Source: Escherichia coli
GTDB taxonomy: Bacteria; Pseudomonadota; Gammaproteobacteria; Enterobacterales; Enterobacteriaceae
NCBI RefSeq assembly: GCF_003334315.1
Contig: NZ_QOWR01000040.1
Reading direction: 5' to 3' (one strand)
DNA length: 43,800 bases
Part shown: one piece after another, positions 43,318-43,800 of the stretch
How the letters are laid out: each line of letters starts with the position of its first letter
Position numbering within the stretch: position 1 is the first letter of the stretch
Translations under genes and position numbers: made by a program
The notes under the pieces: generated by a model
What the model was told of the DNA's origin: nothing
What the model saw: the letters and a program-made list of their open reading frames with translations, nothing else
The model's database searches: none

Positions 43318-43504
43318 TATCAGGAAGATGTTCAGAGGAATATTTAGACATCGTTATACCAATCGAAACATATATTCATGAAATATATATAAATATTTTC
43401 CTAATTGTTCTTATCTGACAGATATCTCACTTAAGGCTTTCTTATAAATCTGTAGGGTTTCGCCTGTCAGCAGACAAATAACCCGATAAAACAAGGATGA
43501 GCAG

Positions 43505-43800
43505 ATGAGCGGAAAACCGGCGGCGCGTCAGGGCGACATGACGCAGTATGGCGGTAGCATTGTCCAGGGTTCAGCCGGGGTACGCATCGGTGCCCCCACC
43601 GGCGTGGCCTGTTCGGTGTGCCCCGGCGGGGTGACGTCCGGCCATCCGGTCAATCCGCTGCTCGGTGCAAAGGTCCTTCCCGGTGAAACCGACATCGCCC
43701 TGCCCGGCCCGCTGCCGTTCATTCTCTCCCGCACCTACAGCAGTTACCGGACAAAAACGCCCGCGCCGGTGGGGAGCCTCGGCCCCGGCTGGAAAATGCC
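43505..43800 (+). CDS. rhsC: Rhs-family protein, N-terminal 98 codons (continues beyond the window)
   Basis: MSGKPAARQGDMTQYGGSIVQGSAGVRIGAPTGVACSVCPGG... conserved Rhs N-terminus (PAAR-like region); GC-rich coding after an AT-rich leader. Confidence 0.85.
   Translation, partial: MSGKPAARQGDMTQYGGSIVQGSAGVRIGAPTGVACSVCPGGVTSGHPVNPLLGAKVLPGETDIALPGPLPFILSRTYSSYRTKTPAPVGSLGPGWKM

Follow-up and report, generated by a model that had tools for sequence, protein, structure and literature searches.

We analysed a stretch of 43,800 nucleotides (nt) of Escherichia coli DNA (contig NZ_QOWR01000040.1 of assembly GCF_003334315.1), called the window below, and found that its right-hand end very probably holds the left end of rhsC, an element which belongs to the RhsA/B/C subfamily of Rhs (YD-repeat) polymorphic toxins, lies in the interval that ybfA and ybgA enclose and that varies between strains, and fits in all likelihood the standard Rhs toxin model. 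A first-pass annotation, made from the letters of the window alone, had proposed that the window stops 98 codons into an Rhs protein, and this proposal holds. The open reading frame (ORF) begins with an ATG at 43505-43507, 7 nt downstream of a Shine-Dalgarno sequence (AAGGA, 43493-43497, found by reading the sequence), and runs through 98 sense codons (43505-43798) to the last 2 nt of the window. Its translation, MSGKPAARQGDMTQYGG...GPGWKM, matches the NCBIfam family RHS_core (NF041261) with residues 1-98 at model positions 1-98 (E 4.6e-61, 206.9 bits). The whole-protein cutoff of this family, 2000 bits, is out of reach for a fragment of 98 residues; the full-length RhsC of K-12, whose start is identical, scores 2683.5 bits against the same cutoff. 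At the DNA level, local BLAST finds no difference in the 1801 nt of positions 42000-43800 between the window and either K-12 MG1655 or strain EC20-72C-1 (100% identity); the features annotated there are ybfA and rhsC, and the first 98 residues are those of K-12 RhsC. Hence the ORF was identified as the start (5' end) of rhsC on two grounds: its DNA is identical to rhsC as annotated in K-12 and in many further genomes, and its product matches RHS_core. Its part in the window has a GC (guanine plus cytosine) content of 67.6%.

The rest of the window agrees with this identification. Upstream of the junction the gene order is gltIJKL, lnt, miaB, a tRNA cluster, asnB, nagEBACD, glnS, fur, pgm, potE-speF and kdpFABCDE-ybfA, which is the usual chromosomal neighbourhood of rhsC. 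Further to the left the window proves not to be K-12 itself, with 48 mismatches in 8.8 kb (99.5% identity) and only 97.3% identity over speF-potE, 12.8 kb having been compared. The best 25-kb matches of the window are phylogroup-A-like isolates, for example EC20-72C-1, ET220, ET245 and 2018-01-1CC. For the gene itself, a map position, a sequence and an annotation have been available in E. coli K-12 since about 1990, and the toxin and immunity concept of Rhs is established; the start of rhsC is therefore known and ordinary, and we give it little weight as a discovery. The value of the present analysis is one of bookkeeping: a reading is confirmed, the edge of an island is placed to the base, a domain label is narrowed, and the variable part of the element is located just outside the window.

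The edge of the island is given by strain 2017-02-2CC, which has no rhs gene at this site. Its homology to the window stops at 43316, the last T of the intrinsic terminator of ybfA, and the two sequences diverge from 43317. This means that the AT-rich leader which separates the terminator from rhsC is the left edge of the accessory island and not backbone, and that the boundary of the island lies between 43316 and 43317. The terminator is unambiguous: its inverted repeat is 100% complementary, and it folds at -25.5 kcal/mol (z = -8.35, none of 200 shuffled sequences being as stable). Among the repeats found in the junction this hairpin alone is meaningful, the others being short matches in two copies. 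A consensus terminator scan did not report it on the plus strand although it fits the criteria of that scan, whose negative results must consequently be taken with care.

Between the boundary and the ATG, the leader measures 188 nt (43317-43504). About 185 bp of very AT-rich sequence had been described here in the first reading, and we recovered 186 nt (43319-43504) at 32.8% GC, with an exact right end at 43504, while the mean of the window is 51.5%. As low a value, or a lower one, is reached in just 1.1% of 186-nt windows. A comparable spacer lies nearby, inside the kdpF-ybfA interval (42799-43055, 33.1% GC), and 4 further places in the window fall to this level or below it. The AT-richness of the leader is thus real, yet normal for E. 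coli spacers. The lowest GC content of the window is found elsewhere, at 34668-34878 (22.6% in 186 nt), by its position upstream of speF and near the speFL leader peptide.

The leader is made of two parts, and homology to the other rhs loci separates them. Positions 43387-43800 match the yibF-rhsA junction with 95.9% identity in K-12 and 97.6% in strain GPEC709, so that the proximal 118 nt of the leader are common to rhsA and rhsC; at the rhsB locus, homology to the window begins only at 43504. A query of 242 nt made of the terminator and the leader matched a median of 2 places per genome, in agreement with a leader shared by rhsA and not by rhsB. These shared 118 nt presumably hold the promoter and the 5' untranslated region. 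A peak of RpoE holoenzyme was reported in the ybfA-rhsC spacer of K-12 by genomic SELEX (systematic evolution of ligands by exponential enrichment; PMC5493296), and it is the sole promoter lead that we have for the leader; a looser pattern scan of 43300-43510 gave 0 matches to a sigma-E-like pattern. An RNA element in the leader was considered and rejected: Rfam at gathering thresholds gave nothing in 42700-43800, and the fold of 43387-43520 is no better than those of shuffled sequences (z -0.32). When Rfam was relaxed to E <= 1 over 42700-43800, the sub-threshold matches that appeared were all centred on the ybfA terminator.

The conserved N-terminal region of the protein had been labelled PAAR-like. 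We take a PAAR domain to be about 90 residues long, to contain three PAAR repeats and to score above the threshold of its family. Residues 2-29 of RhsC align with positions 68-94 of the 94 positions of NCBIfam T6SS_PAAR_dom (NF033420) at E 0.0072, with 16.4 bits against a cutoff of 124, and with Pfam PAAR_motif (PF05488) at E 0.24. Compared with solved PAAR proteins, the same residues give E values from 8.9e-4 to 0.84 (9rce_c at 8.9e-4, 4jiv_D at 0.011), and it is always the last repeat that is matched. One repeat out of three is thus aligned, below the thresholds of both PF05488 and NF033420. Residues 2-29 of RhsC are therefore a PAAR-type motif and not a PAAR domain: one motif of the label stands, while the full domain does not. 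The homologous N-terminal fragment of the effector Tse5, 47 residues long, has itself been termed a PAAR-like domain and is needed for secretion (PMC10684867).

The likeness to Tse5 extends beyond this fragment. Among solved structures, the shell chain of Tse5 (8cp6_B) is the best relative of full-length RhsC (E 1e-125), and other Rhs shells belonging to type VI secretion systems (T6SS) also match. RhsC residues P48-W96 align from residue 1 of 8cp6_B. In Tse5 an autocleavage takes place between K47 and P48, so that the shell starts at P48, and DUF6531 forms its N-terminal plug (PMC10684867). As expected of a Tse5-like protein, Pro48 of RhsC is followed by the plug-opening motif PVNP-LG-K-LP: RhsC 48-PVNPLLGAKVLPGETDIALPGP aligns with Tse5 shell 1-PVNPMLGSKLLPEEVDFALAAP. 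On the K-12 protein, Pfam finds DUF6531 at residues 46-123 (E 6.8e-18). By analogy with Tse5, the 98 codons of the window would encode a putative spike-binding fragment, a likely N-terminal cleavage point between H47 and P48, and the first half of the plug.

Since the window ends here, the downstream content was read in K-12 and in the four closest genomes that we inspected (EC20-72C-1, ET220, ET245 and 2018-01-1CC); from these near-identical genomes we infer the downstream sequence of the source strain itself. In all five, rhsC is an ORF of 1397 codons, annotated as frameshifted in ET245. The RhsC proteins of K-12 and EC20-72C-1 contain YD repeats (TIGR01643, E 9.1e-41, and Pfam RHS_repeat). 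The RHS-associated core of the K-12 protein is matched at residues 1170-1247 (TIGR03696, E 1e-23; Pfam RHS, PF03527) and ends in DPLGL at 1243-1247, after which comes a tip of 150 residues (1248-1397) with nine cysteines over 1251-1397. The start of ybfB overlaps the last base of the rhsC stop codon, and its product has 108 residues and three hydrophobic segments. On the 3' side of ybfB we found an orphan core fragment (ybfO) with a different tip, then ybfC, whose product of 189 residues has an N-terminus resembling a signal peptide, then three pseudogenes of ISAs1 (H-repeat) and finally ybgA. The GC content rises and falls along the element, from 61.3% in the core to 41.4% in the tip and 31.2% in ybfB, then from 60.5% in the orphan core to 43.1% in the orphan tip and 36.7% in ybfC, an alternation which is typical of Rhs elements. 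The features by which the Hill laboratory defined an Rhs element are all present: a GC-rich core joined to an AT-rich tip and downstream ORF, several copies per genome, and remnants of H-rpt (ISAs1). In the related genomes a small gene of immunity type also stands directly 3' of the polymorphic tip, its role in immunity being presumed.

The first-pass annotation had suggested extending the sequence to the right, and had named a truncated Rhs remnant with neither tip nor immunity gene as the outcome that would speak against it. Carried out on the relatives, the extension gives the 1397-codon ORF, the tip, ybfB, the orphan tip and ybfC, and K-12 and the four closest genomes contain no such remnant in place of the element. 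The element is not the same in all of them: compared with K-12, the core of RhsC has 28-31 residue differences in the closest strains, between positions 324 and 1042. The insertion sequence (IS) IS1A is inserted 20-28 nt into ybfB, with flanks overlapping by 9 bp, in three of these four strains, namely ET220, ET245 and 2018-01-1CC. In ET220 and 2018-01-1CC, the IS1A strains that were translated, the tip is identical to that of K-12.

We then considered the tip itself, which lies outside the window. A search for homologues returned 56 proteins, with identities down to about 36%; all those which carry a source name or a relevant Pfam domain are Rhs-associated. In their alignment an H-Q-Y is invariant, a C-Q nearly so, and several cysteines are invariant or near-invariant. 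Eight matches were considered for the model of the tip. Seven are YiiX, PLAAT4, Aichivirus 2A, the V. cholerae T6SS effector TseH, the cysteine peptidase 3kw0, a PPPDE peptidase and CLN5; the eighth, 8iuf_E7 (NDUEG7), is a subunit of a Euglena respiratory supercomplex, which we could not place in the permuted-papain-fold class. PPPDE and PF05708 proteins are also found among the remote Foldseek matches of the tip. With moderate confidence, the tip models as a cysteine hydrolase of the permuted papain fold (superfamily PPPDE / YiiX-C92 / LRAT-PLAAT / NlpC-P60). His1277 and Cys1365 form a candidate catalytic dyad: Cys1365 stands at the start of model helix 119-134, and the order, His before Cys, is that of those families. 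YbfB, predicted to be membrane-embedded, would suit a target in the envelope. Neither Pfam nor NCBIfam gave a family for the two tips (that of RhsC and the orphan one) or for YbfB and YbfC, and a search of the available literature gave no paper on the function of the rhsC tip, on a link between PPPDE and Rhs, or on this fold prediction. Membership in a defence system was tried as well and rejected, as PADLOC had no match for RhsC, YbfB, the orphan fragment, YbfC or YbfA. We regard the function of the tip as being of modest interest, and its predicted fold as a testable guess.

How variable this site is across the species was measured by a megablast of the last 1001 nt of the window against 5,426 complete E. 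coli genomes. The query matched in 5,424 of them, and at least 80% of it was found in one place in 3,687. Many of these matches to the junction, that of K-12 MG1655 included, are 100% identical, with ybfA and rhsC as the features. The 5' end of Rhs occurs in a median of 4 places per genome because the start of the Rhs core is repeated. The K-12 tip together with ybfB is present in 2,537 genomes, against the 3,687 which have the junction, and the orphan tip with ybfC in 3,518. In strain 135, the tip which is the orphan (ybfO) tip of K-12 is fused to a full-length core that immediately follows ybfA (locus L007, 3258-8024), with a frameshifted ybfC and other immunity-like genes 3' of that core; tip displacement at the rhsC site is here seen directly. 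The ybfA-ybgA interval of 2017-02-2CC (locus L005, 5283-7198) holds, without any rhs, small ORFs, one of which is annotated as a contact-dependent inhibition (CDI) immunity protein, and a fragment of IS630, which suggests an island made of immunity-type genes with no toxin among them. In some genomes an IS1 lies within the last kilobase of the ybfA-rhsC junction. Tip displacement and gain or loss have been described for enterobacterial rhs genes (PMC2935791), and the variation at the rhsC site matches this behaviour. The expectation that variable tips and immunity genes would lie beyond the window is thus confirmed by the counts of the tip and ybfB and by the arrangements of strain 135 and 2017-02-2CC.

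In the standard model, as it can be transposed from relatives, the YD repeats of RhsC would form a shell enclosing the tip, as in Tse5, Rhs1 and RhsA of Pseudomonas and Photorhabdus. An aspartyl protease in the core would cleave at DPxGL, and a second self-cleavage would probably take place before Pro48. The short N-terminal fragment would mount RhsC on the VgrG spike of a T6SS; the tip would be a toxin acting in the target cell, and the product of the small adjacent gene an immunity protein. Orphan tip and immunity modules would serve as a reserve from which tips could be replaced by recombination in the conserved core. The export and the toxicity of RhsC are supposed here on the example of these relatives.

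Several observations weigh against this model. The window holds 98 codons of rhsC, everything 3' of them being read from other genomes, and the match to PAAR is a single motif below threshold. In the 43.8 kb upstream, the annotation contains no vgrG, no hcp and no other T6SS gene, and the annotated downstream stretch of K-12, EC20-72C-1, ET220, ET245 and 2018-01-1CC contains none either. The linkage by which a T6SS-delivered effector is recognised (to vgrG, hcp or chaperone genes, or to a T6SS cluster) is thus not seen at the rhsC locus, and delivery by a T6SS is for this reason not established for it. The rhsA-D genes of enterohaemorrhagic E. coli have likewise been called "orphan" with regard to vgrG (PMC7216683). 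In the leader, the consensus scan, a strict pattern and the looser scan of 43300-43510 each gave 0 sigma-70 consensus promoters. Published occupancy data describe the region as transcriptionally silent in K-12 under laboratory conditions, in keeping with the silencing that acquired AT-rich DNA is expected to undergo. The interruption of ybfB by IS1 beside an intact tip, in close relatives of the source strain, suggests that the toxin is not active or not expressed there. Our literature search found no test of the toxicity of the RhsC tip or of protection by YbfB. K-12 is not known to have a T6SS.

The absence of linked T6SS genes, the lack of a T6SS in K-12, the silencing in K-12 and the IS1 in ybfB lead us to give substantial weight to the view that the rhsC locus is currently silent in this background. 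One can go further and see in the element a relic, silenced and not deployed in a phylogroup-A-like background devoid of T6SS, whose present role would be that of a large repeat open to homologous recombination (the original "rearrangement hot spot") and of a store of immunity genes, and not that of a weapon. Along with the missing T6SS genes on both sides, signs of decay point in this direction: the IS1 in ybfB, the frameshifted rhsC of ET245 and the IS1 inside the junction of some strains. The repetition of the Rhs 5' end, four times per genome in the median, agrees with such a role, and a putative exchange between copies would be compatible with the 28-31 substitutions that separate the cores of otherwise near-identical strains. 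The ORF is nevertheless intact over 4194 nt, with an identical tip, in K-12, EC20-72C-1, ET220 and 2018-01-1CC, which would be unexpected under long-term neutral decay. We hold this possibility to be a real one, somewhat less probable than its negation. A further reading makes the ORF at the window end a mere 5' fragment, with no core, tip or immunity gene in the source strain. The same IS1 insertions in the last kilobase of the junction and the frameshift of ET245 speak for such a remnant; the full-length region of K-12 and its four closest genomes, complete with tip, ybfB, orphan module and ybfC, and the 2,537 genomes with the K-12 tip and ybfB make it very improbable here.

Two other proposals keep the tip in use, and we consider both to be unlikely. 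A promoter inside the rhs ORF could drive the expression of the tip and its immunity partner, which would then act in the producing cell as a growth regulator of the type II toxin-antitoxin kind, independently of export. This was reported for Salmonella Typhimurium rhs (PMC7043789), and genomic SELEX placed peaks of both RpoH and RpoE holoenzymes inside the 3' end of K-12 rhsC, upstream of ybfB (PMC5493296). The nine cysteines of the tip, the predicted membrane embedding of YbfB and the signal peptide of YbfC rather point to a target in the envelope or periplasm than to a cytoplasmic pair, and no experiment on E. coli rhsC is known. The persistence of an intact rhsC ORF in strains where no T6SS gene is linked to it could point to a second, equally doubtful proposal: a life independent of any T6SS, by another export route or by internal use of the tip and its immunity protein, in which the tip would be an undescribed cysteine hydrolase of the permuted papain fold (His1277/Cys1365), acting on the envelope and neutralised by the membrane protein YbfB; one third of a PAAR domain, as a motif, and the 118 nt of leader in common with rhsA are the facts that stand beside it. 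The identification of the window end as the start of an rhsC element of the standard type remains the reading that we prefer.

Features at the right end of the window, with the insertion found in related genomes
Feature	Position	Strand	Description	Basis
ybfA	43056..43262	+	68 aa (amino acids), YbfA/DUF2517 family; last core-genome gene before the island	ORF list; annotated in K-12 and other genomes at identical sequence
ybfA intrinsic terminator	43284..43316	+	14-bp perfect hairpin, GAAA loop, T-run 43311-43316	RNA fold, inverted repeat
Distal leader	43317..43386	+	Found at the rhsC locus alone; the strain-variable ybfA-ybgA island begins with its first base	Homology limits against 2017-02-2CC and the rhsA locus
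Proximal leader	43387..43504	+	118 nt, common to the rhsA leader; includes the Shine-Dalgarno sequence; presumed promoter and 5' untranslated region	Homology to the yibF-rhsA junction
rhsC 5' end	43505..43800	+	98 codons and 2 nt, cut by the window end	RHS_core match, 100% identity to annotated rhsC
PAAR-type motif	43508..43591	+	Single motif, residues 2-29 (SGKPAARQGDMTQYGGSIVQGSAGVRIG), corresponding to the final one of the PAAR domain repeats	Weak family and structure matches
DUF6531 start	43640..43800	+	Plug at the N-terminus of the Rhs shell, interrupted where the window ends	Pfam on the K-12 protein
His47-Pro48 codons	43643..43648	+	Aligned to the Tse5 K47-P48 autocleavage site; putative cleavage	Alignment to 8cp6_B
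IS1A in ybfB	locus L009 6796-7603, also L010 and L011 (ET220, ET245, 2018-01-1CC); corresponding to K-12 locus L001 16918-16926			

Away from the junction, three observations can be recorded. The tRNA cluster after asnB (10410-10892, minus strand) has 5 genes, Gln-CTG, Met, Gln-TTG, Leu-TAG and Met, while the cluster of EC20-72C-1 at the same place has 7, with two extra tRNA-Gln genes; that of K-12 likewise has 7. The cluster of the window probably results from a deletion by recombination between tandem Gln genes. Rfam finds the small RNA sroC at 1860-2022 on the minus strand (174.8 bits), by its position in the gltI-gltJ spacer, and a short match to ES036 (CssrF) at 13218-13260 on the plus strand (41.1 bits, for a threshold of 37.6).

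Finally, the element can be compared with those already known. The closest is that of K-12 RhsC (b0700, UniProt P16918), organised as rhsC-ybfB-ybfO-ybfC-H-rpt/ISAs1: it has the DNA of positions 42000-43800 without a difference and the same position after kdpFABCDE and ybfA, whereas the closest relatives of the window depart from it at the 28-31 core residues and, in three cases out of four, by the IS1 in ybfB. The K-12 genes rhsA and rhsB ("clade I" of Jackson et al. 2009, PMC2935791) have core starts 96-98% identical to that of rhsC over the ORF part. The first also has the 118 nt which precede the ATG of rhsC, while the second has an unrelated leader, and both differ from rhsC in their flanking genes, tips and immunity genes. 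The main and orphan rhs pair of Salmonella Typhimurium resembles rhsC in that behind a full-length rhs comes an orphan core fragment carrying a tip and an immunity gene of its own; the pair is located in Salmonella pathogenicity island 6 (SPI-6) and adjoins a T6SS (PMC2935791), which the rhsC locus does not. Tse5 of P. aeruginosa (PA2684, PDB 8cp6), a pore-forming Rhs effector of the T6SS, has the same layout as RhsC, with a PAAR-like fragment of about 47 residues, Pro48, a DUF6531 plug and a YD shell. It differs by an unrelated tip, and by a gene adjacent to vgrG in a T6SS-positive species where secretion has been demonstrated, whereas rhsC has no linked T6SS gene and its product would be cleaved and secreted by analogy with such relatives.
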